Assembly: GCA_964490395.1 (NCBI GenBank)
Contig: CAZBAS010000001.1
Span: forward strand, 19,815-83,814
Source: an uncultured Candidatus Saccharibacteria bacterium
GTDB taxonomy: Bacteria; Patescibacteriota; Doudnabacteria; UBA920
Direction: 5' to 3'
DNA length: 64,000 bases
Shown here: one piece after another, positions 1,000 through 26,963 of the stretch
Position numbering within the stretch: position 1 is the first letter of the stretch
How the letters are laid out: each line of letters starts with the position of its first letter
Made by a program: the position numbers and the translations under genes
The notes under the pieces: model-generated
Told to the model about the DNA's origin: nothing
Database searches by the model: none
What the model saw: the letters and a program-made list of their open reading frames with translations, nothing else

Positions 1000-1503
1000 T
1001 TACTCAGCCTCGCCTGTCGGAAATAGCGCTTCCAAGTCTTTAGTATAGTTTATGTCTGTAGTCTTTATAACCCTCACAAATAACTTTTCTGCAAGTTGTT
1101 TTAGTTCCGACTCAAGCTGACTATCGAGCTTATAGGGCGACGCCCAAATACTTGCTTGCCACATCCTAAACCCAAGGGACTTCAGTTTATTTCTTAAAAA
1201 GGTCCGCACACTTCTCTGCCGCTCTGGTATATCGAAAATAACTAGTTTCCACACCCCATCACGTTCAGGACGCTTTGTAGTTAACAACCCTAAGCCATCT
1301 GGGGTTATAGAAACCTGCGTTTTCGCCGGATTACTGTAGATAAGAAAGCCCTGCTGGATAAGACGGAACACGGTATCGTATACACCCTTGCGCCCCTTTT
1401 CTGGTGAAAATTGACTAAAGAGAGCAGTAAGTGTAGACGGACCATCCACGCTCGCAACCTGAGCGAGAAGCTCTACGCTAAATTGTGTATGAGTTCGAGC
1501 CAT
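1000..1503 (-). CDS. PaaX-like transcriptional regulator.
   Basis: The motif WKLVIFDIPERQRSVRTFLRNKLKSLGFRMWQASIWASP matches the PaaX family C-terminal domain signature (WhLv-f-Pe...R..Lr..L...GF..l...vWv.P), with a winged-helix-like N-terminus. Confidence 0.55.
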   Translation of the reverse strand: MARTHTQFSVELLAQVASVDGPSTLTALFSQFSPEKGRKGVYDTVFRLIQQGFLIYSNPAKTQVSITPDGLGLLTTKRPERDGVWKLVIFDIPERQRSVRTFLRNKLKSLGFRMWQASIWASPYKLDSQLESELKQLAEKLFVRVIKTTDINYTKDLEALFPTGEAE

Positions 1504-1564
1504 AGCAAGACTGAATTGAGAATAATGAATTAAGAATTAAAGTAAAATTAGAACCTCGCAAAGA

Positions 1565-2071
1565 CTATTCTTGATTCGTAATTCTCGCTTCTTGATTCTT
1601 CATTTTTATGATTACTTTCCTACGTGGTTCTAAACCGCTACTAGTTGATACGACCTCTGGATACTGCGCTTGTATGAGGGAGTGCACCAGCTTTCGCTCG
1701 TAATTTGGCATGGGCTCAAGCGCAACCGGGCGCGTAGTACGCTTAAGCTGCTCTACAGCGCCGCGTACAATTTCTTTAATGTACCACTCTCGCTTGCGCC
1801 TATAGTCATCCACATCCAAACTAAACCGAACAAACTGCCCCATGGTGCGACGAGCCACAATGGCCTGAGTAATTATTTCTAATGCATGCAAGTGAGCGCC
1901 GCGATGACCAATAAGCAGGTAGGATTCATTCCCAAGGTTAATGTTGAAAACCAAACCTTTAAGAATAGAGTCTTCGGCTTGTACGGTGGCAGCAAAACCC
2001 ATACTCGAAAAGAGTTCGAGGAGGAGCCGCTCTACACTGTCTTTGTATTCCGAAGACGCTTTTGAATCCAT
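1565..2071 (-). CDS. khpB: Jag/KhpB RNA-binding protein (Jag_N, KH, R3H).
   Basis: Position immediately downstream of yidC. R3H-like ERKLVHSLIQ and KH-like GHRGAHLHALEIIT motifs. Confidence 0.8.
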   Translation of the reverse strand: MDSKASSEYKDSVERLLLELFSSMGFAATVQAEDSILKGLVFNINLGNESYLLIGHRGAHLHALEIITQAIVARRTMGQFVRFSLDVDDYRRKREWYIKEIVRGAVEQLKRTTRPVALEPMPNYERKLVHSLIQAQYPEVVSTSSGLEPRRKVIIKMKNQEARITNQE

Positions 2072-2080
2072 ACGTAAAGG

Positions 2081-2782
2081 TTAAGAAGCTTTCTCAGATT
2101 TTTTCATTATATAGTATTGCTGTGCTATAGCAAACAATGTCGTCACCACCCAGTACAAAGGCAGGCCCGCCGGTAAGCGCCACGCAATAAAAATGCTGAC
2201 AAGTGGAAGCAAATAGGTGGTTTGCATTTGTATGGCCTTTGCCGTTGCGTCAGTCGAAGTACTGGTGTTTTTTGCTTGCATCATCCGCGCCTGCCAGAAC
2301 TGCAATCCACCCGCCAATACTGCTAATACAATGTTTGGCTTGGCAAGATTGATAAAACCTAAGAAGTACGGGTTTATGGTGCCGGGATTAAACACGGTGT
2401 GGTATAGGCCGCTCAGATTACCGTTTAGCGCAGTGCGGAACACTTGATATAAGGCAATGAGTATTGGCAACTGGATGAGCAACGGAAGACAAGAGCTAAA
2501 GGGGTTTACATTATGCTCTTTATATAAAGCCATTACCGCTTTTGCCTGCGCCTCTTTGTCGTCTTTATGCTTAGCCTTCACCTCATCAAGCTTTGGCTGA
2601 AGCGAGGTCATGGCGTGCTGACTCTTTATCTGCTTATGCATGGTAGGCGCGAGCACCAATCGAACCAGCACAGTCAGGATGATAATAACTATACCCACAT
2701 CATGGCCAGGTATAGAATTATAGCCCCACACGAGTAAGTTGAGGAGTGGTTGGTAAATAATTTGATGATAGAGTGCGAGCAT
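2081..2782 (-). CDS. yidC: Membrane protein insertase YidC/Oxa1 (short Gram-positive-type form).
   Basis: Multi-TM protein with the conserved YidC core (LPLLIQLPILIALYQVFR...) in the rnpA-yidD-yidC synteny. Confidence 0.85.
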   Translation of the reverse strand: MLALYHQIIYQPLLNLLVWGYNSIPGHDVGIVIIILTVLVRLVLAPTMHKQIKSQHAMTSLQPKLDEVKAKHKDDKEAQAKAVMALYKEHNVNPFSSCLPLLIQLPILIALYQVFRTALNGNLSGLYHTVFNPGTINPYFLGFINLAKPNIVLAVLAGGLQFWQARMMQAKNTSTSTDATAKAIQMQTTYLLPLVSIFIAWRLPAGLPLYWVVTTLFAIAQQYYIMKKSEKAS

Positions 2783-2788
2783 GGAGAT

Positions 2789-2855
2789 AGAATTATGAAT
2801 TAAGAATCAAGAATTATGTGTAAAATCATAATTCTTAATTCCATATTCTTAATTC
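2789..2855. repeat. AT-rich imperfect inverted repeat (gaattatgaattaagaatcaagaattatg ... cataattcttaattccatattcttaattc) in the yidD-yidC intergenic region.
   Basis: ~29-nt arms with an 8-nt spacer, visible directly. Member of a recurrent gaattaagaat/attcttaattc element family (see 26890..26945). Confidence 0.6.
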
Positions 2856-3127
2856 GGCATTTCAACCTTGGGCTGGGCGAATGGATTACAGCGAACAACC
2901 CGGTACAGCCCCAGATACACACCCTTTATTACACCATGATGCAAAATGGACACTCGAGTATATTCACTACAACTAGGATAATAAGGGCAAAACCCATAGG
3001 GAAAACGGCCCCGGAACACACCGTGGTCAGGAGAGAGAGTTTTCTGATATAGGCTGATTAACGCACTGAGTAAGTACTTCATATAACAAAATATGGAACT
3101 TTTGAGTTCCATTGCATTATACAGCAC
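2849..3127 (-). CDS. yidD: Membrane protein insertion efficiency factor YidD.
   Basis: Conserved Cys motifs (CRFxPSCSxY-like: FCPYYPSCSEYTRVSI) and position between rnpA and yidC. Confidence 0.8.
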   Translation of the reverse strand: MLYNAMELKSSIFCYMKYLLSALISLYQKTLSPDHGVFRGRFPYGFCPYYPSCSEYTRVSILHHGVIKGVYLGLYRVVRCNPFAQPKVEMPN

Positions 3128-3142
3128 TCCCGAGCAACTATG

Positions 3143-3487
3143 CTATAGGAGGAATTTGTTGCGCGCGAGCGCGTCTTGCAAGGCAGTTCGCACCTCAGCC
3201 GGAGTTGTCTTAGCAATCCCAGGACGAACTATAATCATATAGTCGCCACAAACAAGACCAGCCAGACGAAGCCGAAGATACTCTCGAATTATCCGCTTAA
3301 TGCGATTGCGCGTAACAGCCTGCTTAGCCACTTTAGTGGAAACGACCACCGTAAAACGGGACACACCAGCTTGCTGCCTAGATTTTAAAAACTTTATAGT
3401 AAAAAGTGGGGTAAAAAAAGTCCGCCCCGCTCGATAGGCGGTTTGTACATCCCTATCTTTAGCGAGGCGATTTTGCTTTGCAAACAT
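3143..3487 (-). CDS. rnpA: Ribonuclease P protein component.
   Basis: 114-aa basic protein with the RnpA signature (KRIIREYLR, RNRIKR) directly downstream of rpmH. Confidence 0.85.
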   Translation of the reverse strand: MFAKQNRLAKDRDVQTAYRAGRTFFTPLFTIKFLKSRQQAGVSRFTVVVSTKVAKQAVTRNRIKRIIREYLRLRLAGLVCGDYMIIVRPGIAKTTPAEVRTALQDALARNKFLL

Positions 3488-3579
3488 TCGTTAGTTTATA
3501 AAGTTTATAAAGTAGAAAGTTTATAAAGTAACGGATTTAGCTTTATGAACTTTACAAACTTTAAGAACTTGATACTTAT

Positions 3580-3717
3580 TTAGGCTACAGTAAGCCGTTT
3601 TCGACCCTTGGCGCGACGACTTGCGAGTACATTTTGACCTGCTCGTGTCTGCATGCGCTTGAGAAAACCGTGAACTCGTAGGCGTCTTCGGACTTTTGGT
3701 TGATAGGTTCGCTTCAT
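3580..3717 (-). CDS. rpmH: 50S ribosomal protein L34.
   Basis: Hand translation of the minus strand gives [45 protein letters not shown] (45 aa). This is a near-consensus L34. It is absent from the ORF track because it is shorter than 60 aa. Confidence 0.9.
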
Positions 3718-3896
3718 GATAAACAGTACATATTAATTGCGGACCCGCAAAGCAGGCCTAAAACTTCGCCAAGCATTGCTGGAAAGTAGAAAAACTATAC
3801 ATAGTATAAGGAAAACATACCCATTTCGTCAACTCCCCCATGGAGATGCCTTATATAGTTGTATAATGGATAAGGAGTGTATATTTTACGAACACC

Positions 3897-4274
3897 ATGA
3901 AGATAACAACATCAACCGGAACGCTCGTACTGCTACTTGCAGTGTCCATTGCGCTTATGCCCACCATTTCAGCCCTGGATAAATTCAATGCAGAGATAGT
4001 TCCCCCCGTAGGGACAGTTGCAGGTATTGCCATTGGAGGCGTTATTGAGCCAACCCCCACAAACACCCTCTATGCAGAATTGCAAAACGAGAAAACTGTC
4101 CTCGACAGCAGAACCAAAGAGCTGGACGCCAAGGAGCGATACCTTAATGCTGCAAATCAGCATAAAACCTACATACTCGAATTCGCCGTTGCTATACTAT
4201 TTTGCTTAGTTTTAATAAATTTCTATTTTGATATACGCAGAACAAAAAAGGAAGTCACACAAATCAATACATGA
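3897..4274 (+). CDS. Small bitopic membrane protein (N-terminal signal/TM, coiled-coil, C-terminal TM).
   Basis: Hydrophobic N- and C-terminal segments. Overlaps the next gene by 4 nt (atga), so it is first in an operon of surface-protein genes. Confidence 0.5.
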   Translation: MKITTSTGTLVLLLAVSIALMPTISALDKFNAEIVPPVGTVAGIAIGGVIEPTPTNTLYAELQNEKTVLDSRTKELDAKERYLNAANQHKTYILEFAVAILFCLVLINFYFDIRRTKKEVTQINT

Positions 4275-5794
4275 AGTACACTAAAAAAATATCCCTACTA
4301 CTCCTAACCGCTTTGCTGTGGCATCTCTGCACACCCTTGCACACAGCCATAGCCGCGCAGGAACTACTCAACAGAAAAGACACGTTGGGCAGTTCAATCA
4401 TAGACACTGCATCAAGTCACGACATACTGTTCACCACAACCACAACCATACCTGCTTCGGGTAAAATTGTATTTACGCTTACGCCCGGACAATTCACCAC
4501 TCCCCCTAGTATGAGCGAGAGCGATGTAGATGTTTTAGTAAATGGCGTAAATAAAAACATCGGAAGCACGCCAGGTTTAGGCGCGGGGAGCAATTTGGGC
4601 GTTGTGGTAACAACTGGGACAAGCGGATCCATCACCATCACCCTCAACGACACAGATGCCATAAGTAGCGGCAGTACAGTTGAGATTAAAACTGGCAATA
4701 TTGCAAACTTTCAGACCGGAGGAGTATTTAACATAATAAACCCTTCCACAATTGGGTCTTACCTTGTTACATTGACCACCTACTCCCCAGCTCTAGCAGT
4801 TCTAGACCAAAGTGGCATTGGCCTAGCCACTTCTGTCCCCGTAGGGATAATGGGAAGTAACATAGTAGAAACCCCTACTTTCAATCCTGCAAGCGGCACC
4901 TATACGAACCCAATCACCGCTTCCATACTCTCTACACCAGGAACAACTATCTACTACACCCTAGACGCAACAACGCCCACTACAAGCAGTCAAATATATA
5001 CAGGACCTTTATCCATAACTACATCTACCATTATTAATGCAATTGCTACTGCCCCGGGAATGTCTGACAGCGCCGTAGGCACAGCGAGCTATATAATTAG
5101 CAACGGCCAAACAAATACTGGTGGTGGTGGCGGCGGAGGTGGCGGTGGTGGAGTTGTGTACACCCCACCACCGGGTGAAACACCCATACAAGGGAACAGC
5201 GGCGGTACCCTTTCGACTCAGTGTGGTAATGGTGCGCGACTCACCCTCGTTGTGCCACCCCACGCCTTCGAAGGAGAGCAGTTCATAATTATTTCTTGTA
5301 TGGCATGGAGCACCTTTCCCATTAAGACCGGAGCACCAAAGGGCGACGCACTAGCAGATACTATTTTTGGGATTACCGTCCGCGATGTATACGGTACCTT
5401 GTCTACGAGCCCAAAAATTCCACTTTCCGCAACCATTGAGTATACACAAGGGCAAAGCTCCCAATATGCAGCACCTTTTGTGGCAACGCAGTACACCATA
5501 GGAGGCGTGTGGACGGTATTACCTACCCCCTCTGCACAGAACAATAACCAACAATTCGCCCTACAACTACCTACCGTTGGCCCCGTAGCCGTGCTCGCTA
5601 CGAAAGAACCACGCAACCAATGCAGTACAATCCCCGCTGACCTTAATTGTGACGGCCGAGTCAACCTTACCGATCTAAGTATTTTGCTCTATTATTGGCA
5701 ACAAAAAGGCGCTGGAATAAAAGCTGATATTAACAAAGATGGTATAGTTAATCTAATAGACTTCAGCGTAATGCTCTATTGGTGGACAAATTAG
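4271..5794 (+). CDS. Secreted protein with a C-terminal dockerin-like module and a chitobiase/Fn3-like domain.
   Basis: Signal peptide. Segment TIYYTLDATTPTTSSQIYTGPLSITTSTIINAIATAPGMSDS (CHB_HEX_C-like). Gly11 tract. C-terminal duplicated Ca-binding segments DLNCDGRVNLTDLSILLYYW and DINKDGIVNLIDFSVMLYWW, typical of dockerin type I. Confidence 0.65.
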   Translation: MKYTKKISLLLLTALLWHLCTPLHTAIAAQELLNRKDTLGSSIIDTASSHDILFTTTTTIPASGKIVFTLTPGQFTTPPSMSESDVDVLVNGVNKNIGSTPGLGAGSNLGVVVTTGTSGSITITLNDTDAISSGSTVEIKTGNIANFQTGGVFNIINPSTIGSYLVTLTTYSPALAVLDQSGIGLATSVPVGIMGSNIVETPTFNPASGTYTNPITASILSTPGTTIYYTLDATTPTTSSQIYTGPLSITTSTIINAIATAPGMSDSAVGTASYIISNGQTNTGGGGGGGGGGGVVYTPPPGETPIQGNSGGTLSTQCGNGARLTLVVPPHAFEGEQFIIISCMAWSTFPIKTGAPKGDALADTIFGITVRDVYGTLSTSPKIPLSATIEYTQGQSSQYAAPFVATQYTIGGVWTVLPTPSAQNNNQQFALQLPTVGPVAVLATKEPRNQCSTIPADLNCDGRVNLTDLSILLYYWQQKGAGIKADINKDGIVNLIDFSVMLYWWTN

Positions 5795-5798
5795 CCAC

Positions 5799-6761
5799 AT
5801 GAATACACATTATTTAAAATTTTTCTTAGCAACCGCCCTACTTGTTTTTACAGGAACACCCGCTGTATCCAGGGCAGCCAACACCAACATTAGCCTTTCC
5901 AGCCCCCACACCGCAAGCGTTGGTCAGAGCATTCGTATACGCGTACTAGTTTCAAGCGACCAAAGCCTTAACGCGGCACAGGGCACAGTACAATACCCAA
6001 AAGAATTTCTTTCGGTAACGGGCATCGCAACAGGAAAATCAATTATAAAATATTGGCAACAAGAGCCAAATAACGACCCGGGCACCGGCACCATAAGTTT
6101 TACGGGAGGATTGCCAAACCCTGGGTATACAGGCACGGGAGGCACTGTTTTCGACATTACCGCACGAGCGCTTGCTGAAGGAAAAGCAACGGTTGTGTTT
6201 GGAGAAAACACTCAAATTCTAGCAAATGATGGCAACGGTAGCGTGCTCGACACCAGTAAACAAGGCGCGACCATACAAATTACAAAAGCCACTACACCCG
6301 ACCAGGAAACAACACCACCAGCCGAACCCGCAAAAGATACAACACCCCCTACCGACCTAGAACTTCTCATAGGGCACGATGGAAATTTATTTAACGGGGA
6401 CTGGTTCGCGGTCTTTCAAGCAACCGACACTGAAAGTGGCATCGACCACTATGAAATAGCAGAGACCTCACAAAAAACGCCATACCCTGTTGACAATGAG
6501 TGGATAAAAGCAACAAGCCCGTACCGCCTACAAGAGCAAGTTAAGAATACTAAAATATTTTTTAAGGCTGTAGACAAAGCAGGAAACCAGTCCATAATTA
6601 GCCACGATCACATTGTAAAGCCACCCCTTTTGCAAATGATTACTACCCAAACCGATTGGAGATTTCTTGTAATTCTGGCTATCCTCCTCTTACTCGCCGT
6701 CGTACTACCCATATTTGTCTACAACAGAAAAAAACAACAAGCGGGCACTGTACAAAAGTAG
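5799..6761 (+). CDS. Cohesin-like domain protein with a C-terminal TM anchor.
   Basis: Signal peptide, then a ~140-aa region with cohesin-like strand pattern (GQSIRIRVLVSS...GTVQYPKEFLSVTGI...GTVFDITARALAEGKATVVFGE). Ends with the hydrophobic stretch LVILAILLLLAVVLPIFVY plus a basic tail. Immediately follows the dockerin gene. Confidence 0.55.
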   Translation: MNTHYLKFFLATALLVFTGTPAVSRAANTNISLSSPHTASVGQSIRIRVLVSSDQSLNAAQGTVQYPKEFLSVTGIATGKSIIKYWQQEPNNDPGTGTISFTGGLPNPGYTGTGGTVFDITARALAEGKATVVFGENTQILANDGNGSVLDTSKQGATIQITKATTPDQETTPPAEPAKDTTPPTDLELLIGHDGNLFNGDWFAVFQATDTESGIDHYEIAETSQKTPYPVDNEWIKATSPYRLQEQVKNTKIFFKAVDKAGNQSIISHDHIVKPPLLQMITTQTDWRFLVILAILLLLAVVLPIFVYNRKKQQAGTVQK

Positions 6762-6827
6762 AAAAATGTGATATTATTATTTCATAAAATATTTTTTGTC
6801 AGTTAAGAAATAAAAAGTAAACGTGTT

Positions 6828-7955
6828 ATGGCAAACCGACTAGCCTTCTACTTGAAAAAGAAGTTTAAAAATACAACCAGCAAAGCTCTTGTCGCCACAC
6901 TAGTGCTCAGCACAATTCTTTTTGGTGCCAATACAGCCAATGCAGCTCAAATTACTTCATTCTCAGATACGCTCACAAGGCTCAAAGCAAGCACGGCAGC
7001 AGACCACACCATATTCTTGGTCAGTCCTAGTGGTATTGCAGCAGGCCAAAGCATGACACTTACTTTTGGAGCAGCCTTTACTACAAGCTCAATAGTTCTT
7101 GCAGATATCGACTTTGCTACGGGAAACAGTGGTACTTGTACGAGTGCCACCTATACTGAGCAAACCCTAGCAGCTTCCCCTTCTGGTGCTACTTGGGGTG
7201 TTACCTTTTCAAGCTCAGTGTTAACCCTCACCTCAGGAACAGGCACCTCAACGGCTGGTAACTGCATGCGCTTCAGAATAGGGACAAACGCTGTAACTGG
7301 CAGCTCTGGTACCCATCAAATCACAAATGGTACAGCTGGCGCCACAACCGCAACGGTAGTAGCGAACATAAACTCAAGCACCGATACGGGTACACTGTTT
7401 ATTCCAATCATCACCAACGACCAAGTAACTATTAGCGCTACGGTTGACCCGACTATTTCTTTTAGCATAAACAACACCTCTGTTAGTTTCGGTTCTCTTT
7501 CTTCATCTACAGGCCGCTGGGCTACTACCGGTGGTGGCGCAAACGCCTCAGCTGCAACAGACCCTACCGCGGCCAACACTGCTCATACCTTAACTATAGG
7601 AACAAACGCCACCAGTGGATATACAGTTACCTACAACGGAGCCTTGCTTACAAGCGGTGCAAATACTATAGCAGCGGCTACAATCACTGGGGATAGCGAC
7701 GGAACACAAAACTCAAACCAATTTGGGCTCTGCGGTAAGGGCACCTCCGGTAGTCCAACAGTTGCCTCTGGCTATGTATGCAGTACCAACAGTGACTACA
7801 ACTTTGTCGCAAACACAACTACCACCCTTGCCAGCGCAACGGCCCCAGCCAGCAGCGACGTAGTAAGCGTAGCGTATTTGGCCAACATCGCGAGCTCGAA
7901 GCAAGCTGGTACATATACCACCACCCTGACCTACGTCGCCACCGGTAATTTCTAA
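6828..7955 (+). CDS. Secreted Thr/Ser-rich beta-sandwich protein with a WxL-like / SCPU-like C-terminal domain.
   Basis: Signal peptide. C-terminal ~170 aa has the pattern VTISATVDPTISFSI..SVSFGSL...HTLTIGTNATSGYTVTY....AGTYTTTLTYVATGNF*. Paralogous to 9062..10156. Confidence 0.5.
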   Translation: MANRLAFYLKKKFKNTTSKALVATLVLSTILFGANTANAAQITSFSDTLTRLKASTAADHTIFLVSPSGIAAGQSMTLTFGAAFTTSSIVLADIDFATGNSGTCTSATYTEQTLAASPSGATWGVTFSSSVLTLTSGTGTSTAGNCMRFRIGTNAVTGSSGTHQITNGTAGATTATVVANINSSTDTGTLFIPIITNDQVTISATVDPTISFSINNTSVSFGSLSSSTGRWATTGGGANASAATDPTAANTAHTLTIGTNATSGYTVTYNGALLTSGANTIAAATITGDSDGTQNSNQFGLCGKGTSGSPTVASGYVCSTNSDYNFVANTTTTLASATAPASSDVVSVAYLANIASSKQAGTYTTTLTYVATGNF

Positions 7956-7968
7956 ACGTTTTACCACC

Positions 7969-8997
7969 TTGTCTAGCATTCGCTTCATATATAAGCTTTT
8001 TACTATCAGCACTCTGTTGCTGATAGTTTTTATTACCTACCCGCAGCACGCCAGGGCAACCACCATTTCACCAGTAAAACTCGAGCTAGCGGCAAACCCT
8101 GGAGAGACAATTCAAGGGTCAATCAAGGTAATAAATGAAACCCAAAGCTCCGAGGTACTCTACACTGCAACATTAAACTTTGAGCCAAAGGGTGATGAAA
8201 GTGGTGAACCAAATTTCGTACCAACCAAAGACGGCCTAGCGGCTTGGGTAAAAACTGATTATTCCATCACCCTGGGACAAAAAGAGCAAAAAAACCTGCC
8301 TTTTATCATCCAAATTCCCATGGGAACTGAACCGGGGGGATATTTTGGGGCCATTTTTACTTCTACAACACCGCCAAAAGAAAATGGTAGCGGTGGGGTA
8401 ATGCTCACAGAACGGGTCGGATCCCTTGTGTTATTGCGTGTAAACGGAGCACTCGCCGATTCCGGAGATATATTAGAATTCGGTACAAAAGATAAAAAGT
8501 TTTGGCATACCACCCTGCCCATTACTTTCTACTACCGATTTCAAAATAGCGGCCTAGATCGCGTTAGACCGCTCGGCGATATTCTCATAAAAAATTGGGT
8601 TGGACGTACCTCAAAAATAGTCCCCGCCAATCCAGAGGGCGGAAACGTGCTACCTAAAAGTATACGCAGGTTTGAATCGAAATGGATTAACCTATGGGGC
8701 AAGGCAAACAAAGAGGATATTGCCCAATTCCCAACCCCGCCAGAACAGGGCTTCTGGAAAAAAGTGTCGTACGAAGCAAAATATTTTGCCTGGGGTCGCT
8801 ACAAAATTCAGCTCAACCTTGCATATGGTTTCACGGAATTCCACTCAACCAGCGCCACCACAACAATTTTTGTCTTCCCGTGGCACCTCACACTCGTAAG
8901 TACACTTGCCGCAATTACATTATTCTTCATACTACGCTTCGCAATACGTAGATACAATCGCTGGATAATAAAAAAGGCAACCAAGAAAACAAAGTAA
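7969..8997 (+). CDS. DUF916/DUF3324-like (CscA-like) cell-surface protein with a C-terminal TM anchor.
   Basis: Signal peptide, ~300-aa extracellular domain (PVKLELAANPGETIQGSIKV...EPGGYFGAIFTSTTPP...), and C-terminal TM plus basic tail (ITLFFILRFAIRRYNRWIIKK). Paralogous to 10161..11123 and 11120..12097. Confidence 0.5.
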   Translation: MSSIRFIYKLFTISTLLLIVFITYPQHARATTISPVKLELAANPGETIQGSIKVINETQSSEVLYTATLNFEPKGDESGEPNFVPTKDGLAAWVKTDYSITLGQKEQKNLPFIIQIPMGTEPGGYFGAIFTSTTPPKENGSGGVMLTERVGSLVLLRVNGALADSGDILEFGTKDKKFWHTTLPITFYYRFQNSGLDRVRPLGDILIKNWVGRTSKIVPANPEGGNVLPKSIRRFESKWINLWGKANKEDIAQFPTPPEQGFWKKVSYEAKYFAWGRYKIQLNLAYGFTEFHSTSATTTIFVFPWHLTLVSTLAAITLFFILRFAIRRYNRWIIKKATKKTK

Positions 8998-9007
8998 CTA
9001 TATAAAT

Positions 9008-9038
9008 AACACCCTTGTCTGAGCTGGGGTGTTTTTTA
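9008..9038 (+). terminator. Rho-independent terminator.
   Basis: Hairpin aacaccc-ttgtctgagctg-gggtgtt followed by a T run. Confidence 0.55.
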
Positions 9039-9061
9039 TATATCCGTGATAAAATGATTAC

Positions 9062-10156
9062 ATGGAACTCGCAAAAAAAATCTTGCTGCTATGCTCTCTT
9101 ATAACGCTTATTTTATACCCCTTTGGCCTGCACGCAGAGACGTTATCAAGCACAAATTATACCGTAGAGAACCCCAGCGTGGATTCAGGCGGTGAAAATA
9201 GCAATTCAACAAATTATAATGAGCGAGAATCCATCGGGGGAAGCAACGACAGCGCTGCGAGTTCAACAAACTATCGAGCATTCCCCGGATTCGTCCAACA
9301 TGCCTACCCAGGCATTCCCGGGCAACCAACACTCGTGAATACTGGTGGGGTACTGTACAACGCCCTAGATTTTATTATTGCTACTGCAGGCAACCAAACT
9401 GACACTACATACGCCATTGCCATATCGAGCGACAACTTTACCACAACCAACTTCATTCAAGCAGACGACACCGTAGGCAGCAGCGCTGTATGGCAATCCT
9501 ATACATCATGGGGCTCAGGCACAGGCCAACGAGTTACAGGGCTCAGCGCGAACACCACATATAAAATTAAAGTCAAAGCGCGCTATGGCTTTGATACCGA
9601 AACTGCTTATTCTATTACCGCCAGCGCTACTACAGGCGGGCCAACCCTCACAGTATCGTTTGCGGGCGTAAACTCAGGCACTACCATATCTGGAGCGACC
9701 ACTACCATTACGAGCGCAAGTAATACTATAAGCTATGGCTCACTAACCCCGAACGTAACAGCGGTAGCAGCTCAAACCATAACGGTAAGTACAAATGCAA
9801 CAGGCGGCTATACTACAACGCTGCAGCAAGACGGCGATCTACGCAACAATGGTGGAGATTCCATAAGTCCCGTATCGGGCAGCAACGCCTCACCCGCAGC
9901 ATGGCCCACAGGCATCACCACTGGGTTTTTTGGATATCACACTACTGACGCCACCCTCTGTACAGGGACCGCGGGAAGATTCACTTCAAATAACACGTAT
10001 GCTGCGGCCACAACCACCCCTTCAGAAATTGCCTGTTCTACCACAACGGTTACAAACGAACAAACGTCATTAGTATATAAAGTGGAAATTGGAACTGGAC
10101 AAGACGCAGGAACATATCAAAACATAGTTACCTACATAACCACTGCGCAATTTTAA
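9062..10156 (+). CDS. Secreted Thr/Ser-rich beta-sandwich protein, paralogue of 6828..7955 (WxL-like / SCPU-like C-terminus).
   Basis: Signal peptide. The C-terminal pattern TLTVSFAGV...ISYGSL...TITVSTNATGGYTTTL....AGTYQNIVTYITTAQF* parallels that of 6828..7955. Confidence 0.5.
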   Translation: MELAKKILLLCSLITLILYPFGLHAETLSSTNYTVENPSVDSGGENSNSTNYNERESIGGSNDSAASSTNYRAFPGFVQHAYPGIPGQPTLVNTGGVLYNALDFIIATAGNQTDTTYAIAISSDNFTTTNFIQADDTVGSSAVWQSYTSWGSGTGQRVTGLSANTTYKIKVKARYGFDTETAYSITASATTGGPTLTVSFAGVNSGTTISGATTTITSASNTISYGSLTPNVTAVAAQTITVSTNATGGYTTTLQQDGDLRNNGGDSISPVSGSNASPAAWPTGITTGFFGYHTTDATLCTGTAGRFTSNNTYAAATTTPSEIACSTTTVTNEQTSLVYKVEIGTGQDAGTYQNIVTYITTAQF

Positions 10157-10160
10157 ACTC

Positions 10161-11123
10161 ATGCATTACTCTTGGCGGGCCCTTATTGTATGGATACTTA
10201 TTATGGCTAGTTTTTTACTGGCCCCTGTTGGATACGCCCAAACAAATGAAGTGGCGCCAGAACTTGAAGTGCAAGGCGTGCGCATAACCCCTTTTATATT
10301 TGAACAATCCGTGCAAAAAGGAGAATCATTCACAGGAGACATTACTCTTACGAACACTACGGCAGCTCCGGTCACGCTTTCATTAGCCATTCGCGACTTC
10401 ATCCCCGCTGGCCGGCACGGCGAAGTCCGATTCCTACCAGCCAACCAAGAAACAGACTCTCATTTTTCCTTATCAAATTGGGTAGAAATACAGAAGCAGC
10501 CAGATTACACGCTTGACCCCGGACAAAGCACGCGTACTACATTTCGCATACATGTCCCAACTGATGCAGATGACGGCACTCACTACGGGGGCATACTCTT
10601 CTCTTTTAGCGAGGGAAAAGCAGAGAACGGCACAACGGTCATTCAAAGCATTGGCGCTATTCTCATTGCAAAAATTGGATATGCCAACGGTAGCGGTACA
10701 GTTGAAACTTTTACCACCCCGCAACACATATACGCCAGCAGCACTGTTCCATTTGTGGCCACTTTTCGTAATACCGGAAATGTGCATTTTAGTCCTAAAG
10801 GTAAAATAGAAATCAAAAATATCTTTGGCAAAGTCGTCGGCCTTGCTTATATAAACGAAAATGCGCAAATTAGCCTTCCTGACACAGTAAGACAATTTGA
10901 AAGTGTTTATAAAGGGAAATTTATGGTGGGAAAATATACTGCCACACTTACCCTTGTTTTCGGAAATCCAAAACTGGAAGCCCAAAAAACGATAGGGTTT
11001 TGGGTGCTGCCATGGAAATCACTTATAAAATTTGGATTATTGAGCATACTTGTATTAGCCCTGCTCATATTCGCAATAATCCGCTATAATACATGGGTTA
11101 TTAAACACGCCCCCCGATCATGA
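10161..11123 (+). CDS. DUF916-like (CscA-like) cell-surface protein with a C-terminal TM anchor (paralogue).
   Basis: Shares VRITPFIFEQSVQKGESFTGDITLTN and DGTHYGGILFSF with the corresponding PVKLELAANPGE... and EPGGYFGAIF segments of 7969..8997. C-terminal TM LSILVLALLIFAIIRY. Confidence 0.5.
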   Translation: MHYSWRALIVWILIMASFLLAPVGYAQTNEVAPELEVQGVRITPFIFEQSVQKGESFTGDITLTNTTAAPVTLSLAIRDFIPAGRHGEVRFLPANQETDSHFSLSNWVEIQKQPDYTLDPGQSTRTTFRIHVPTDADDGTHYGGILFSFSEGKAENGTTVIQSIGAILIAKIGYANGSGTVETFTTPQHIYASSTVPFVATFRNTGNVHFSPKGKIEIKNIFGKVVGLAYINENAQISLPDTVRQFESVYKGKFMVGKYTATLTLVFGNPKLEAQKTIGFWVLPWKSLIKFGLLSILVLALLIFAIIRYNTWVIKHAPRS

Positions 11124-12097
11124 ACCCAGTCTTGCGTTCAGTACTTGTAGTCAGCTTTATTTTTGCCATCATTGCTGGGACACTACCCCGCACTGCCAAC
11201 GCGCTTACTGCCTCCCCTATACGTATAGAGCTAAACTCAGATCCTGGTAAAACAATAACTTCGCAGTTTAAGCTTTACAACGACGGCAAAACAAGCGAGA
11301 CCTACTACGTAATTTTCGAAAACTTTGAAGCCAAAGGAGAAGACGGCAGCCCAACTCTAGTTGCCGGCACAGACGGCCTTGCCCGATGGATGTCCACAAC
11401 GGAGTCTGTCACTATAAACCCAAAAGAGTCAAAAACACTACCCCTCACTGTTACAATACCCAAAGATGCCGAACCCGGCGGGTATTTTGCTGCCATTCTA
11501 GCCTCTACCATTCCACCAACACCTGAAAGCGACCAAAACGTATTACTTGAAGCACAGGTGGGAACCCTTGTTTTATTACAGGTAAACGGAGATTTTAAAC
11601 AAGGAGTAGACATACTAGAGTTTGGAACTACAAGCAAAAAGCACTGGTTTACAGCGCTTCCTATAGAGCTCTATTACCGCTTTCAGAACGCAGGAGACAG
11701 CTGGGTTAAACCCATAGGAGACATTATTGCCAGGAATTGGTTTGGTAAAACAACCAAAGTTATCCCAACAAATGAGGATCGGGGCAACATCCTACCCCGC
11801 AGTATTAGAAAATTTACCACGACATGGTACGGAAAAGATAAAAGCGGCCAAATGCCCAAAGGCTTTTGGAAAAAAGTAGGCTACGAGTGGAACAATTTCG
11901 CTTTTGGGAAATATTCCATGTCCTTAAACTTGGCCTATGGCAACAGTAGCGACCAAGCAGCCAGAGCAACAACAAGTGTGTGGATATTTCCTTGGCATTT
12001 ATTGCTGGCCGGGCTTGTAGCAATTGTGCTAGTATTCGGAATTTCCATCTCGCTCGCCGTTGTTCTGGTCATGAAACTACTAAAACGAAGAAAATAA
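11120..12097 (+). CDS. DUF916-like (CscA-like) cell-surface protein with a C-terminal TM anchor (paralogue).
   Basis: Segments SPIRIELNSDPGKTITSQFKLYN and EPGGYFAAILASTIPP are nearly identical to those of 7969..8997. The start overlaps the previous gene by 4 nt. C-terminal TM plus KRRK tail. Confidence 0.5.
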   Translation: MNPVLRSVLVVSFIFAIIAGTLPRTANALTASPIRIELNSDPGKTITSQFKLYNDGKTSETYYVIFENFEAKGEDGSPTLVAGTDGLARWMSTTESVTINPKESKTLPLTVTIPKDAEPGGYFAAILASTIPPTPESDQNVLLEAQVGTLVLLQVNGDFKQGVDILEFGTTSKKHWFTALPIELYYRFQNAGDSWVKPIGDIIARNWFGKTTKVIPTNEDRGNILPRSIRKFTTTWYGKDKSGQMPKGFWKKVGYEWNNFAFGKYSMSLNLAYGNSSDQAARATTSVWIFPWHLLLAGLVAIVLVFGISISLAVVLVMKLLKRRK

Positions 12098-12114
12098 TCT
12101 CTCACATACATCTA

Positions 12115-12145
12115 AAGCGCCCTCTGTGGGGCGCTTTTGTTTTAA
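12115..12145 (+). terminator. Rho-independent terminator.
   Basis: Hairpin agcgccc-tctgt-ggggcgct followed by tttgtttt. Confidence 0.6.
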
Positions 12146-12483
12146 TAGGAAAATTGGTAGCAACTGTTAAAACAATAATGCTTATTTACTGACGTAGTTA
12201 GTAAATTAAAAGTTACTTTCCACGCAAGCCCAGCTTCACCAACATATACGATCGCAAAAATACACTTTCTAATACTTACGACCACACTTGCTTAAGCGTT
12301 GTCTCAACCATGAAACATAGTAATATGCCTCAGATTTCATACCACACAGCTATTATTGGTTCATGGGTATAATGTAGTTTTTTGTTTTATATAAGCAATA
12401 TTTATGAATAAAACGTATTACCAAGGAATGATTTATATCAAAAACCCTTTTATATTCAAGGAAAAATTTTGAGATGCGCTCTA

Positions 12484-12512
12484 TTGACCTAATGATAAAA
12501 CTGTGATAAAAT
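12484..12512 (+). promoter_or_regulatory. Sigma70-like promoter (TTGACC, 17 nt spacer, TAAAAT) in the long AT-rich leader upstream of the HTH gene and the giant protein gene.
   Basis: ttgacc-taatgataaaactgtga-taaaat read directly. It lies ~210 nt upstream of the 12721 start codon. Confidence 0.4.
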
Positions 12513-12720
12513 ATACATAAGTTTTGTTAAGTTGTGTGTAGATAAAAAACCTAACACCACCTACCAAAAGCTACTTCATTCCGCATAGCGGAAAGAAACC
12601 AAAAGAAAAAATAATTCAATAAGTGGTATTAGTTATTCGTTTTCAGTTTAGTTTTTTGAATGCCTATTTGGTGTTCGTCTAGCAGAAACGAGCAAATATA
12701 ACCACAAGGAAACAAACACC

Positions 12721-12924
12721 ATGCAAAATATGCAGTTACCAGAGCTGCTAACCTTGCGAGAAGCCTGCGAGCTCCTTCACGTTCACCCAAACACGCTCAG
12801 AAATTGGGAAAAAGAGGGAAGACTGTCCGCAGTTCGCATAGGCAGCCGCCGAGACCGCCGCTTCACCAAAGAAGCGCTGGCCCAGCTCTACACCTCTCTT
12901 GCAACCCAATCAGCCGCTTTGTAA
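12721..12924 (+). CDS. Small helix-turn-helix DNA-binding protein (excisionase/MerR-type HTH_17 family).
   Basis: The motif LLTLREACELLHVHPNTLRNWEKEGRLSAVRIGSRRDRRF is the typical excisionase-family HTH. The gene is 67 aa and lies immediately upstream of the giant ORF. Confidence 0.6.
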   Translation: MQNMQLPELLTLREACELLHVHPNTLRNWEKEGRLSAVRIGSRRDRRFTKEALAQLYTSLATQSAAL

Positions 12925-13043
12925 CCATAGTGGCTTTTATTGCAGTCCAAAAACAACAAGAAACAAAAACATTCAATAACGCCATGGCTCACGTATAGCA
13001 CGAAAGCCATACATAAAGAACTACTGGCGAACACCCCCCACAC

Positions 13044-16000
13044 GTGGCAAAACACAATCTGAAAACTATTCTAAATTTCAGAAAGCGTACAAAGCTGTAT
13101 GCTCTTTTGGCATTGGCGGGTGTAGCACTCAATTGGATGCCGTTGTTTGCCCCACCGGCCCAAGCCACGGTTCCAAAATACATAAACTTCCAGGGAAAGC
13201 TCACAAAAGTCTCTGATGGTACTAACGTCACGAACGGAAGCTATGCTTTTGAATTCAAACTATACGATGCGAGCACCAGTGGCACCCTACTCTGGACAGA
13301 AACATATGACCAACCAAGTGGTGCGTGTACTAAACTAGCAGTAACAAGTGGGGTATTCAACGCCAAACTTGGTTCTTGTGCGTCCCTGGCGAGCATCGAC
13401 TTTACCGGCGGATCAATATATCTCAGTGTAAACTTTGCTCCCACAGGTGTTAGCTATGACGGTGAAATGTCGCCACGCAAGCAACTCGTAGCCTCTCCCT
13501 TTGCATTAGTCGCCAACAGCGTATCCGGTGATGGACCTATTAATACAGTTAATTCTTCTGCTACGGCCTTAACCGTAGCAAAATCCGGAAGCAACTATGG
13601 CCTCCAAGTTGATACCAGCACTGCCTCTGCTGCGACAGGTCTTAAAATAACCTCAGCAGCTGCAGCGAGCGGTATTGCCTTGTCGGCTATTTCTTCTGGA
13701 ACTAATGAAAGTATTACTCTCGACGCCAAAGGAACAGGCTCAGTCAGCCTCGGCGCAACCTCTACCGGTGACATCCTCCTTGGTGGAGGCTCGGGTTCCA
13801 CTGGTTGTACAGTTACCAACTCAACCGGTGCATTTGCTTGTACGGCTGGCGGCTCGTTCACAACCCTTGGTCTGAGCGGGGCAATTACCGGAGCGACCGG
13901 GATTACATCTTCCGGCACCATCAACTTCTCTACTCTTTCCGCCTCAAGTGCCGTCTATACCGACGGCTCAAAAAACCTCACCTCAACAGCACCAACAAGC
14001 GGCGCCATTGGCTACTGGTCTAGAAGTGGCACCACACTTCAACCTACGACCAGCAACGATGCAATCTCAATAACGGGCAACTCTGGAGATATTGCCACAC
14101 TTACTTCCTCTGCAACTGAAGCCTCTAACAAAACTTTAAATATTTCTCAGACTGGTGCAACAAGTGGTACTGACTACGGAGCATATATTTCAAACACAGG
14201 AGCAGCAACAAACAATGTTGGTTTATATACCACCACCTCTGGGGCAACCAATAACTATGCTGCGATTTTTGATAGTGGAACAGTAGGGTTTGGTACAACT
14301 GCCCCCACAGCAGGCAAATTGCACATTCTAGCAGCAAACACTACACAACCCGCAATTGCAGTACAGCAGCCAAGCGCGAACAACAACTACAGCATATTAT
14401 TAGCATCTACAAACAACTTTGGCTCCAACAACCTTGATTTAAACTATCAAGATGGTAATGGTATTCGGATGATTAGCAACCTAAATATGAATATCAGCGC
14501 TGGAAGCGCGCTTAATTTAACATCCGGCACCGCATCTACGTACGCCCTACCTTCAAACACCGCAAGTGCTTTACGCTTTACAGATGGGACAAACTCGTAC
14601 CACACTATCGATACGAGAACTACAAACTCCACATCCTCCGCGCACACTTTCGCCACAACTGCACCCACCATTGCCTCATCTAGTACTTCCGCGTATTTAC
14701 TTACGACTTTTACCCCAGGCACCCAAACATACACCGGGACCACCAACACCACCAGCACTGGTGCTACTGCCCCACTGAGCGTACTCTTCAACCAGCCAAC
14801 CATAGCAGGCAACGGCACCAGAACTATTACTGAAACTTCTAACACCGTTATTAATGGTCCAACCATTGCATCTTCTTCTTCAGGTACAGAAACAATTACT
14901 AGCGCCTATGGACTTAATATCCTTTCCGGTTCTGCACTAAACGGCACTGGTGGTGCGGTTACTAACGGTGTTGGTCTTTCAGTAAACGCCCCCACTGGCG
15001 CAACCAATAACTACGCAGCCTTGTTTAACGGCGGCAATGTAGGCATTGGAAACACCGCCCCGACTGAGACGCTCGACGTAACGGGCAACGCAAAAATACG
15101 CGGCACTTTAAAGATCCGAAGCGCTAGCAATACTGGAAACCTAAGCATTCTTGATGCTGGAGGTGGTGTAGCCACAATAGACAACACTGGTAATAGTATT
15201 CTCGCTATAAATGGTGGCTCTATCAGCACAAACTTTGTGACTGGCAACGTTGGTATTGGTATTTCCAACGTCACCACACCAAATGCTGCATTACAAATTG
15301 CCACAAACGGCGCAGCTTCAACACCAGGCGTACGACTTGATGGTACCTGGTACGCTGCAGGAACAAGCACTACTAATAAACCACAATTATTAGTCGAACC
15401 AACTGGCACAACCTCTACTACCTGGTCCGGCGCAGGCACTGGCATTGGCGCCAATGCCGCAAGTGGTTTTACCGGCAACTTACTTGACCTGCAAACAAAC
15501 AATGCAAGCAAGTTTTCAGTAGCAAGCGACGGTACTGTAATTACAGCCAGTACTATTTTTGGCGGCAACGACATTTATGCTGGATCAAGCAGCTACTTAG
15601 CTTTTAGCAGCCGAAGTAAAATTAGTTCCCCTGCCGACAGCAACTTACTACTCACCAACGCTGCTGCAAACGCATTTAACTTATTGCAGTTCGGCGGCAC
15701 TTCTTCTTCTTTCCCTGCCCTAAAACGCAGCACAACCATCCTACAAGCGCGACTTGCAGATGATAGTGGGTACACATCATTTGACGCAGGAAATTTCCTC
15801 CTCAGCGGCACAAACATAAACACCGCGGGTACACTCACTAATGTTGCGTATAAAAATGCAGCCAATACTTTTACAGCTAATAATATCTTCCAGCCAACTG
15901 TCACTACCGGCACTGGGGCCACTGCTGGTGTACAAATTGCAGCAAACAGTTTAACCACCGGTAATGGACTAGATGTTTCTTCTACCTCACTCACAACAGG

Positions 16001-25481: not shown

Positions 25482-25769
25482 AGACCTGAATAACGAACGA
25501 CGAATTAAGCACGGAAATATCTTGGGGAAAACTGACGTATAAGAACCTCATAGCTAGTTGATAACTTTGACCCAATAGACCAGACCAATACTTTTCCCCA
25601 TTTAGTAATCCACCCTATGCACAAGTTATCCGCTAAAACCGCTGAGCCCAAAATGTATTTTTGCTTAATTCCTAATTCATAATTCGTCATTCCGCATTCG
25701 GGTTACCCACATATCCACCGCCCTTATTACTATTACTAATTTATTTATATATTTATTTAATAATAATCT
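25482..25769. other. Candidate oriC in the dnaA-dnaN intergenic region, with DnaA-box-like 9-mers and an AT-rich unwinding element.
   Basis: taatccacc (25606..25614), ttatccgct (25627..25635) and atatccacc (25711..25719) each differ from TTATCCACA at 2 positions. AT-rich tract tttatttatatatttatttaataataat (25741..25767) directly upstream of dnaN. Confidence 0.4.
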
Positions 25770-26876: not shown

Positions 26877-26889
26877 TTTAGTCCGAAGT

Positions 26890-26945
26890 ATGAATCAAGA
26901 ATTACGAAGTGTGTGTTCTTGAGTTCATAATTCTTGATTCATTAT
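26890..26945. repeat. AT-rich inverted repeat (atgaatcaagaattacgaa ... ttcataattcttgattcat) in the dnaN-recF intergenic region.
   Basis: ~19-nt arms with 2 mismatches. Same motif family as 2789..2855. Confidence 0.55.
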
Positions 26946-26963
26946 TCATAATTCTACTTTGCT

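Follow-up and report, generated by a model that had tools for sequence, protein, structure and literature searches.

A dockerin-bearing pilin derivative and a membrane-anchored cohesin as a proposed pilus anchor in a Pam-type operon of the candidate phyla radiation

Bacteria of the candidate phyla radiation (CPR), which live attached to host cells, possibly account for a large part of bacterial diversity. To our knowledge, how their surface appendages are assembled and retained on a minimal envelope is largely unknown. Here, we analyse a stretch of 64,000 nucleotides (the window) from an uncultured Candidatus Saccharibacteria bacterium that GTDB places in Doudnabacteria (assembly GCA_964490395.1, contig CAZBAS010000001.1, positions 19,815 to 83,814 of the forward strand), in which positions 3897–12097 form one eight-gene operon for a CPR Pam-type donor-strand-exchange pilus. 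The three genes at its 5′ end encode a small membrane protein (P1), a secreted protein ending in a dockerin (P2) and a membrane-anchored cohesin protein (P3). Our preferred reading, to which we give a probability of roughly 0.55, is that P2 is a chain-terminating subunit at the pilus base that docks on membrane-bound P3. The initial annotation, made from the DNA letters alone, had seen in these genes a minimal cohesin–dockerin anchoring pair; such a pair does not stand alone here, since P1–P3 are the 5′ part of an operon whose other genes encode Pam-type pilins and putative chaperones anchored by a transmembrane (TM) helix.

The Pam system was described in 2026 from cryo-electron microscopy of filaments of Ca. 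Mycosynbacter amalyticus (Troman et al., bioRxiv 10.64898/2026.03.03.709456). According to that preprint, the pilin consists of a nine-stranded N-terminal domain (NTD), a linker strand that inserts into the truncated-Ig C-terminal domain (CTD) of the neighbouring subunit, and a CTD of its own. PamT, which has the CTD only and accepts a strand, is modelled at the pilus tip, and PamR (WP_260763282.1), a 32.8 kDa protein in which two FnIII domains lie between an N-terminal strand and a C-terminal TM helix, appears in the model as both terminator and tether. The pili “appear easily untethered”, and neither dockerin nor cohesin is mentioned. The Pam pilus models used in our analysis were NCBIfam NF058581 and NF058579; NCBIfam contains no model for PamR.

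The C-terminus of P2 had been read as a duplicated Ca-binding dockerin, and the profile proposed as a check, Pfam Dockerin_1 (PF00404), bears this out, matching residues 456–501 with 32.1 bits, where the gathering score is 22.9 (E 1.4e-7). The duplicated Ca-loop segments, at residues 457–476 and 486–505, have the dockerin layout of two tandem segments of about 22 residues, in each of which a helix comes after a Ca loop (D-x-[ND]-x-D … D at position 12). All 17 aligned homologues keep the Ca ligands D457, N459, D461 and D468, and D486, D490 and D497, and N488 is conserved at 90% or more. The P2 family profile matches solved cellulosomal dockerins (4fl4_A at 2e-4, and 1daq, 2mte and 2y3n_B), and an AlphaFold2 (AF2) model of P2, with a mean predicted local distance difference test (pLDDT) of 79, places the dockerin helices at residues 466–474 and 495–503. 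Positions 10, 11, 17 and 18 from the first Asp of each loop read L-T-L-Y in one segment and L-I-L-Y in the other, so that the module is nearly symmetric; a dual binding mode of this dockerin is conceivable.

P3 begins with a signal peptide (about residues 1–26, by inspection), continues through a cohesin, a Pro/Thr linker and an FnIII/Big_13-like domain, and ends in a TM helix and a basic tail. The corresponding check with the Pfam Cohesin model (PF00963) succeeded for the family but not for P3 itself, which gave no PF00963 match at E ≤ 1 and no NCBIfam cohesin match. Its 133 homologues, all from CPR where named, include many with precomputed PF00963 assignments, one of these 79% identical to P3, and a rescan with the same model matched 14 of 35 aligned homologues, the best at 6.8e-8. 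Compared with the PDB, the family profile has cohesins as its top matches, weak ones (E 0.003–0.005) that include cohesins of R. flavefaciens. An AF2 model built on the 35-homologue alignment reaches a pLDDT of 90.5, and all of its 50 top Foldseek matches in the PDB are cohesins, led by 2w1n, the cohesin–FnIII double module of C. perfringens GH84C (E 2.4e-11). The modelled domain is a nine-stranded jelly-roll β-sandwich that superposes on solved cohesins with single-domain TM-scores of 0.70–0.76 and an rmsd of 2.9–3.5 Å over about 145 columns. Homologues and predicted structure together establish the first domain of P3 as a cohesin, and the β-sandwich with a C-terminal TM anchor that had been proposed for this gene is upheld, the anchor by both hydropathy and the AF2 helix. 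The FnIII-like domain, with a weak NCBIfam match to an OmpL47-type barrel (27.9 bits), is the most conserved part of the family (‘SGIDHYEIAE...DKAGN’).

P2 resembles a pilin in its N-terminal half. When the P2 family is compared by hhalign with the family of the operon’s own first pilin, the match (98.4%, E 5.6e-15) runs from residue 4 to 196 of P2 and from 11 to 202 of the pilin, and thus spans the entire NTD up to the linker strand. Neither our pilin-CTD hidden Markov model (HMM), PILCTD, nor NF058581 matches P2, which has no detectable acceptor CTD by these models. At the position of the linker strand, P2 has ‘VPVGIMGS’ aligned with the pilin’s ‘DQVTISAT’, and V191 is invariant in the 17 homologues. 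Residues 191–196 are the only short, low-confidence stretch (pLDDT below 50) within the N-terminal half of the monomer model, as might be expected if this strand became ordered only once bound. Taken with its position, this suggests that the P2 linker may act as a donor strand, and the same position reads ‘GPVSVTAE’ and ‘APIEVSAK’ in relatives from loci L018 and L020, nearer the pilin consensus.

The relatives of this domain point the same way. An exhaustive phmmer search with P2 residues 28–201 gave 239 representative clusters at 50% identity, and of the best 150 of these, which were classified by their C-terminal end, 107 have a dockerin, 4 a pilin CTD and none both. An acceptor CTD occurs in 0 of the 107 dockerin-ended relatives; in this P2-type subfamily the dockerin, to judge by these profile matches, replaces the acceptor domain. 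The smallest relatives (298 aa in L008 and 281 aa in L020) consist of an NTD, a linker strand, a Pro/Gly spacer and a dockerin. P2 had been called a CHB_HEX_C/Fn3-like protein, a description that fits residues 206–271 but not the N-terminal 170 residues, which are a Pam pilin NTD plus linker. The CHB_HEX_C domain is absent from the orthologues in L004, L008, L013 and L020, and both it and the middle domain appear dispensable, as the relatives of 281–298 aa have neither. Against the PDB, the P2 model gave only generic Ig-like, adhesin or S-layer arrays, with nothing informative for either the NTD or the middle domain and no enzyme-like fold for the latter; Pfam and Foldseek found no catalytic domain in P2. 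A protein that stands apart among the relatives is P0367, of 3077 aa, in which nine tandem copies of the pilin-type NTD precede a C-terminal TM helix and a basic tail of its own, so that it resembles a covalently concatenated ‘pilus’.

The pairing of the two modules extends far beyond the window. One genome per GTDB species was scanned with a 22-sequence alignment, which yielded 162 stretches encoding P3 relatives, and 80 of these loci were analysed by running module HMMs from our own alignments on six-frame open reading frames (ORFs). In 71 of the 80, an ORF with a C-terminal dockerin lies at most 400 nt upstream of the first cohesin gene (median gap 4 nt), and in 7 of the 9 others the cohesin gene is at a contig edge, its upstream gene unseen. 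The topology is complementary: a C-terminal TM helix is present in the first cohesin protein in 69 of 79 complete cases and in 0 of 79 dockerin proteins. The dockerin proteins range from 281 to 2785 aa, and their sampled cargo comprises MG2, InlB B-repeat, fn3 and Big_6 domains, with Dockerin_1 above the Pfam cut-off in each cargo-bearing protein sampled. The non-cellulosomal context that had been proposed holds, as there are no enzymes among the partners; the window has one cohesin and one dockerin, and relatives carry Ig, MG2 or fn3 cargo. In 26 of the 80 loci the cassette is flanked by Pam-like genes, in two different gene orders, and wherever a locus extends far enough, dockerin genes of the pilin-NTD type (class A) adjoin pam genes. 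In most CPR loci (many of L015–L080) a second cohesin gene follows the cohesin–TM gene, and L033 and L038 have three or four in tandem; the product of the second gene, of about 470–610 aa, ends in a highly charged coiled-coil tail and not in a TM helix, with an apparently internal TM segment before it.

The other gene order, found in Kerfeldbacteria, Ca. Microgenomatus, Parcubacteria and others, runs from a giant protein through a pilin, a TM chaperone and a dockerin protein of about 290 aa to a cohesin–FnIII–TM protein. The giant proteins of these loci have a full pilin CTD as their extreme C-terminus (E 1e-38 to 4e-56), which makes them candidate tip adhesins that would seed the pilus; in L044, L074, L078 and L084 the first ORFs, of more than 1300–1680 aa, run off the edge of the locus and end in a complete Pam pilin acceptor CTD. 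The proteins of about 290 aa consist of a signal peptide, a short strand, a Pro/Gly spacer, Big_6, Big_13 and Dockerin_1 (25.6–38.9 bits). A donor-strand pattern, [VI][TSAG][VI][TS][AI][TSQGR][VI], which was devised after the sequences had been seen, matches 21 of 46 pilins, always at the NTD–CTD junction, and 10 of 79 dockerin ORFs, all of them proteins of about 290 aa and always at the mature N-terminus, as against 0 of 63 chaperones, 2 of 169 cohesin ORFs and 6 of 4030 other ORFs. Within a locus the strands of pilin and dockerin protein are near-identical (VAVTATV and VTVTATV, respectively, in L078; VSVTATV and VSVTASV in L029). The short dockerin family has at least 215 members of 265–387 aa, nearly all with a dockerin, in which a strand is followed by a Pro/Gly spacer; the strict motif is present in 52 of the best 120 matches, most others being single-substitution variants, and no TM-ended, PamR-like relative is among these 120. 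By sequence, the members of this family are laid out as PamR is described to be, except that the TM helix has given way to a dockerin.

The two halves of the pair also occur in one chain. In the 740-aa protein P0442 (GCA_038249015.1; positions 2602–4824 of locus L087), a signal peptide, a pilin NTD, a middle domain and a dockerin are followed by the linker DAPATLPGPATL and then by a cohesin, an FnIII domain and a TM helix, and its gene lies after a Pam chaperone gene (E 9e-62) and a P1-like gene. P0442 has no internal signal peptide and is thus not a simple read-through of two genes. The fusion is known from a single metagenome-assembled contig, where an assembly error is possible, and in the Rosetta-stone sense it supports the idea that the P2 and P3 families are coupled, physically or functionally.

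From these elements a course of assembly can be envisioned. Pilins would polymerise by donor-strand exchange on the TM-anchored chaperones, while P3, once exported and held by its single C-terminal TM helix, would display its cohesin outside the membrane on a stalk formed by the Pro/Thr linker and the FnIII domain. Exported P2, its NTD packing like that of a pilin, would donate its strand to the last pilin; because it lacks an acceptor CTD, it would offer no groove for a further subunit and so would end the fibre on the cell-proximal side. The Ca-dependent dockerin, reached through the Gly11 tract as a flexible joint, would then plug into the cohesin of P3, fastening the pilus base non-covalently to the membrane. 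The P2/P3 pair would thereby be a two-piece counterpart of PamR, the one-piece tether proposed for Ca. M. amalyticus, and the easily untethered Pam pili fit a non-covalent joint, though they were seen in an organism with no reported dockerin.

Several points weigh against this reading. What the analysis shows is the identity of the modules, the homology of the P2 and pilin NTDs, the lack of an acceptor CTD in P2, the linkage of the genes, the topology and the fusion; that the cohesin binds the dockerin, that the P2 linker enters the groove of a pilin and that P2 sits at the base are steps that we infer, and the polarity of the pilus depends on the AlphaFold-based ordering proposed in the preprint (bioRxiv 10.64898/2026.03.03.709456). 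The linker ‘VPVGIMGS’ deviates from the pilin consensus ‘V[TSA][IV][ST]ATV’, and the after-the-fact origin of the donor-strand pattern tempers the counts obtained with it. In M. amalyticus, the only experimentally studied Pam system, pamR comes directly after pamB and no dockerin is reported. A partial Mantel correlation of dockerin with cohesin divergence, controlling for FnIII, gave r 0.247 (0 of 2000 permutations), no stronger than the reciprocal control (r 0.263), which points to shared ancestry and not to specific co-evolution, and it was dropped as evidence. Lastly, 54 of the 80 loci have no pam genes by our narrow HMMs, and their cargo is large MG2/Ig proteins; the pair is thus an anchoring device of general use, and its presence does not have to mean a pilus.

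This last point feeds the alternative that P2 is a free-standing surface adhesin or glycan-binding protein on a P3 socket, that the pilus is merely co-expressed, and that the pilin-like NTD is a reused β-sandwich. Such generic display would accommodate the unrelated cargo (MG2, InlB-repeat, fn3) of the pam-free loci, the CHB_HEX_C domain of P2, which is typical of glycan-active proteins, and the nine NTD repeats and TM helix of P0367, which imply that the NTD can occur outside a pilin context. It accounts poorly for a homology between P2 and the pilin that reaches through the linker-strand position, for the mutual exclusion of dockerin and acceptor CTD in the NTD subfamily, for minimal relatives that retain only NTD, linker and dockerin, for a second class of dockerin proteins with the donor-strand motif at the N-terminus, and for the constant company of class-A dockerin genes and pam genes wherever the locus is long enough. 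We regard generic display as unlikely, though far from negligible.

It could also be supposed that P3 is itself the terminator and tether, equivalent to PamR, and that the dockerin of P2 decorates P3 or other cohesins in an accessory role such as host binding. By description, P3 and PamR are alike in size and layout, each with two β-sandwiches (Ig/FnIII-like in PamR) and a C-terminal TM helix, and the first mature strand of P3, ‘TNISLS’, alternates in pattern. In the AF2 model, however, that strand does not extend freely but forms strand 1 of a complete cohesin fold; moreover, no M. amalyticus protein is among the 133 P3 homologues, and the pilin NTDs and donor motifs on dockerin proteins would be left unexplained, so that this proposal is improbable. 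A still poorer prospect is that dockerin and cohesin are not partners and bind other ligands, for instance on the host-cell surface, or distant modules, adjacency being co-regulation only: two to four cohesin genes do follow one dockerin gene in many loci, some dockerin-like modules have no known cohesin partner (Peer et al. 2009, as cited in PMC10066038) and an essential dockerin protein of S. epibionticum has no adjacent cohesin gene, yet the 4-nt median gap across 71 of 80 loci, with 7 of the 9 exceptions at contig edges, the TM helix on the cohesin side only, and the single-chain fusion all speak for partnership. That essential protein, SEML1_0315, bears a dockerin and emerged from transposon sequencing of Southlakia epibionticum, a Saccharibacterium in culture (Wang et al. 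2023, PMC10633639); we considered it as an orthologue with an adjacent cohesin and rejected it, as it is a 927-aa Ig-repeat protein encoded beside tRNA and hydrolase genes.

Returning to the operon that would encode the pilus and its proposed P2/P3 anchor, its features are listed in Table 1.

Table 1. Features of the operon at positions 3897–12097 and of its 3′ flank
Feature	Position in window	Strand	Basis
P1 ORF, 125 aa	3897–4274	+	ORF list; first gene of the module
P2 ORF, 507 aa, secreted dockerin-bearing pilin derivative	4271–5794	+	ORF, Pfam, alignment, AF2
P2 N-terminal domain, aa ~28–188	4352–4834	+	Homologous to N-terminal β-sandwich of the Pam pilin at 6828; AF2 pLDDT >90
P2 linker ‘VPVGIMGS’, aa 189–196, candidate donor strand	4835–4858	+	Position of the pilin linker strand
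P2 CHB_HEX_C/Fn3_assoc Ig-like domain, aa 206–271	4886–5083	+	Pfam CHB_HEX_C_1, E 1.4e-17
P2 (GGN)11 tract, Gly11, aa 284–294	5120–5152	+	Codons read; disordered hinge, pLDDT 26–27
P2 middle β-sandwich, aa ~304–445, conserved Cys318 and Cys343	5180–5605	+	AF2, alignment
P2 dockerin, aa 456–507, two Ca-binding loop–helix segments	5636–5791	+	Pfam, PDB dockerin matches, AF2 helices
P3 ORF, 320 aa, type-I membrane protein with extracellular cohesin	5799–6761	+	ORF, homologues, AF2, Foldseek
P3 cohesin, aa ~27–163	5877–6287	+	Foldseek; Pfam matches of homologues
P3 FnIII/Big_13-like membrane-proximal domain, aa ~185–272	6351–6614	+	AF2; 2w1n cohesin–FnIII match; alignment
P3 C-terminal TM helix, aa ~287–309, basic cytoplasmic tail after it	6657–6725	+	AF2 helix 287–319; Kyte–Doolittle maximum 3.39
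Major pilin, Pam-type, 375 aa: NTD, linker strand, acceptor CTD	6828–7955	+	NCBIfam CPR_Pam_pilin_C, 56.2 bits against cut-off 55
Pilin linker strand ‘VTISATV’, aa 200–206	7425–7445	+	Motif
PamC/D-like chaperone, C-terminal TM helix	7969–8997, start possibly 8017	+	ORF, own CHAP HMM, TM prediction
Second pilin, PamT-like N-terminus and pilin CTD	9062–10156	+	PILCTD HMM; NCBIfam below cut-off
Chaperone-like Ig protein, C-terminal TM helix	10161–11123	+	Pfam WxLIP_PGBD, 34.4 bits against 27.3; CHAP HMM; TM prediction
Third chaperone-like protein, C-terminal TM helix	11120–12097	+	Pfam scan, CHAP HMM, TM prediction
Strong terminator-like hairpin, 10 bp, 6 GC, T-rich tail; probable operon 3′ end	12114–12137	+	Consensus match only

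Of the 4-nt overlaps that had been claimed to join the first three genes, the one between P1 and P2 is real, whereas P2 and P3 are separated by a 4-nt spacer, the P2 stop codon ending at 5794 and the P3 ATG standing at 5799. The operon’s synteny is kept in loci L001–L004 and L006–L012, and the hairpin directly after the last chaperone-like gene, the only strong terminator-like one, probably marks the 3′ end. Among the downstream genes, the product of the second pilin gene stays below the NCBIfam cut-off in its matches to both the PamT model (E 1.1e-9) and the pilin C model (1.2e-4). The three Ig-like, TM-ended proteins would fit by sequence the membrane-anchored, PapD-like PamC/D chaperones that have been described; no curated PamC/D model matches any of the three. 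The start of the first chaperone gene is ambiguous, with a TTG at 7969 and a gene call in L001 that begins later, and around it, just 3′ of the major pilin gene, lies a 10-bp hairpin with a T tail (8002–8027, +), which may be an attenuator that sets the ratio of pilin to chaperone. Pam pilins were sought by sequence in the PDB without a match, in a set that did not contain entries 25PZ and 25QA.

P1 has hydrophobic segments at both termini by hydropathy, a coiled coil, and a core, ‘PxGTVAGxxVGGVIEPTPTNTLY’, that is conserved. It is found in 5 syntenic loci, and a P1 HMM matched 17 loci, in all 17 of which the gene is directly upstream of a pilin-NTD-type dockerin gene; P1 thus belongs to the same conserved module, as first suggested. 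Residues 34–57 of P1, IVPPVGTVAGIAIGGVIEPTPT, resemble the P2 linker, SVPVGIMGSNIVETPTF (PVG ... [IV][IV]E.PT). P1 may mimic a strand while bound to the membrane, or may serve in assembly.

The Gly11 tract of P2, placed by Tandem Repeats Finder at 5119–5151 in the TGG register, had been taken for both a flexible hinge and a hotspot of triplet-repeat length change. Both ideas are reasonable in view of the low pLDDT and of P0121, a homologue 99% identical to P2 with G7 in place of G11. The length varies in other relatives too, and similar Gly/Pro runs occur in dockerin proteins of other lineages (G8 in L020, G9 in L081, G10 in L085).

The operon is set in a CPR-type chromosome. Upstream, rpmH (3580–3717), rnpA, yidD, yidC and jag lie on the minus strand, and dnaA, dnaN and recF lie at 24111–28055 (+). 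These two groups are the usual neighbours at a replication origin; here a surface-structure block of about 20 kb (3897–23726) separates rpmH-rnpA-yidD-yidC-jag (1000–3717, −) from dnaA-dnaN-recF, and the cumulative GC skew has its minimum at about 24–26 kb of the window. Further upstream are the C-terminal end of a class-A penicillin-binding protein with two Big_7 Ig domains (4–936, +) and a PaaX-like regulator (1000–1503, −), both of which stand upstream of the module in all close relatives (L002–L006). Directly 3′ of the operon, a giant ORF of 3560 aa (13044–23726, +) carries towards its C-terminus a Peptidase_S74 domain, of the endosialidase-chaperone, tail-fibre type; L002 and L004 have orthologues at the same position, of 3683 aa and at least 2411 aa, respectively, and the ORF corresponds to the ‘tail fibre-like protein’ beside pam operons in the Pam preprint (bioRxiv 10.64898/2026.03.03.709456).

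The likeness to the system of Ca. M. amalyticus is close: both are CPR-specific and combine pilins of NTD, linker donor strand and truncated-Ig CTD with TM-ended chaperones, putative ones here, and a nearby giant tail-fibre-like protein, and both would have a membrane-tied base component that donates a strand. The tether is one protein there, whereas here a dockerin-bearing pilin derivative and a cohesin–TM protein would share its role; the small protein P1 is additional here, and the gene order differs. The dockerin proteins of about 290 aa share with PamR a strand and two Ig domains, and differ in ending in a dockerin where PamR has its TM helix. Outside CPR, non-cellulosomal pairs such as the C. 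perfringens GH84C cohesin–FnIII (2w1n) have the same type-I-like cohesin jelly roll followed by FnIII and the same duplicated Ca-loop dockerin, but they join secreted enzymes and toxins, while here the cohesin is TM-anchored and the cargo non-enzymatic and pilin-derived. In the anchoring scaffoldins of cellulosomes (type II cohesins of C. thermocellum SdbA and OlpB, with SLH) a cell-bound cohesin likewise takes up the C-terminal dockerin of a secreted structural protein, by which a large assembly outside the cell is held on it; here, by contrast, there is a TM helix and neither SLH nor sortase anchoring, no X-module, a filament in place of an enzyme scaffold, and a one-to-one pair in the window. 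PapH, a terminator of chaperone–usher pili, and the sortase-anchored base pilins of Gram-positive bacteria offer the parallel of a dedicated last subunit that joins the fibre, cannot be extended and couples it to the envelope; PapH remains with the usher, and the housekeeping sortase attaches base pilins covalently to peptidoglycan, whereas a non-covalent, Ca-dependent plug is proposed here.

Non-cellulosomal cohesins and dockerins were already known (Peer et al. 2009, FEMS Microbiol Lett 291:1, as cited in PMC10066038), and some of these CPR proteins carry the NCBI labels ‘cohesin domain-containing’ or ‘dockerin type I repeat-containing’. A full-text literature search of incomplete coverage found no paper that ties cohesin–dockerin to a pilus or describes the CPR cassette. 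That cohesin–dockerin is the native pilus-to-membrane anchor of many CPR, with two convergent terminators and a phylum-wide cassette of a dockerin gene followed by a cohesin–TM gene, is a generalization we put forward tentatively, at a little short of even odds. It makes several predictions, namely Ca/EDTA-dependent shedding of the pili, binding between the two small modules, and complementation of the strand by a peptide of 8–10 residues.

If true, this would add to ushers and sortases a third means by which donor-strand-exchange or Gram-positive pili are anchored, and it would extend cohesin–dockerin from the scaffolding of enzymes to the anchoring of filaments. The two terminators would be a pilin whose acceptor domain has been swapped for a dockerin and a protein with an N-terminal donor strand, two Ig domains and a dockerin, and the missing base component would be supplied for many Pam operons that have no PamR-type tether. 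A Ca-dependent, non-covalent joint would explain why Pam pili are easily shed and could permit the regulated release or exchange of appendages. More broadly, the cassette would be a modular system by which giant surface proteins are hung on wall-poor, ultrasmall cells; being widespread, it offers a genomic marker for surface-display loci in uncultured lineages.

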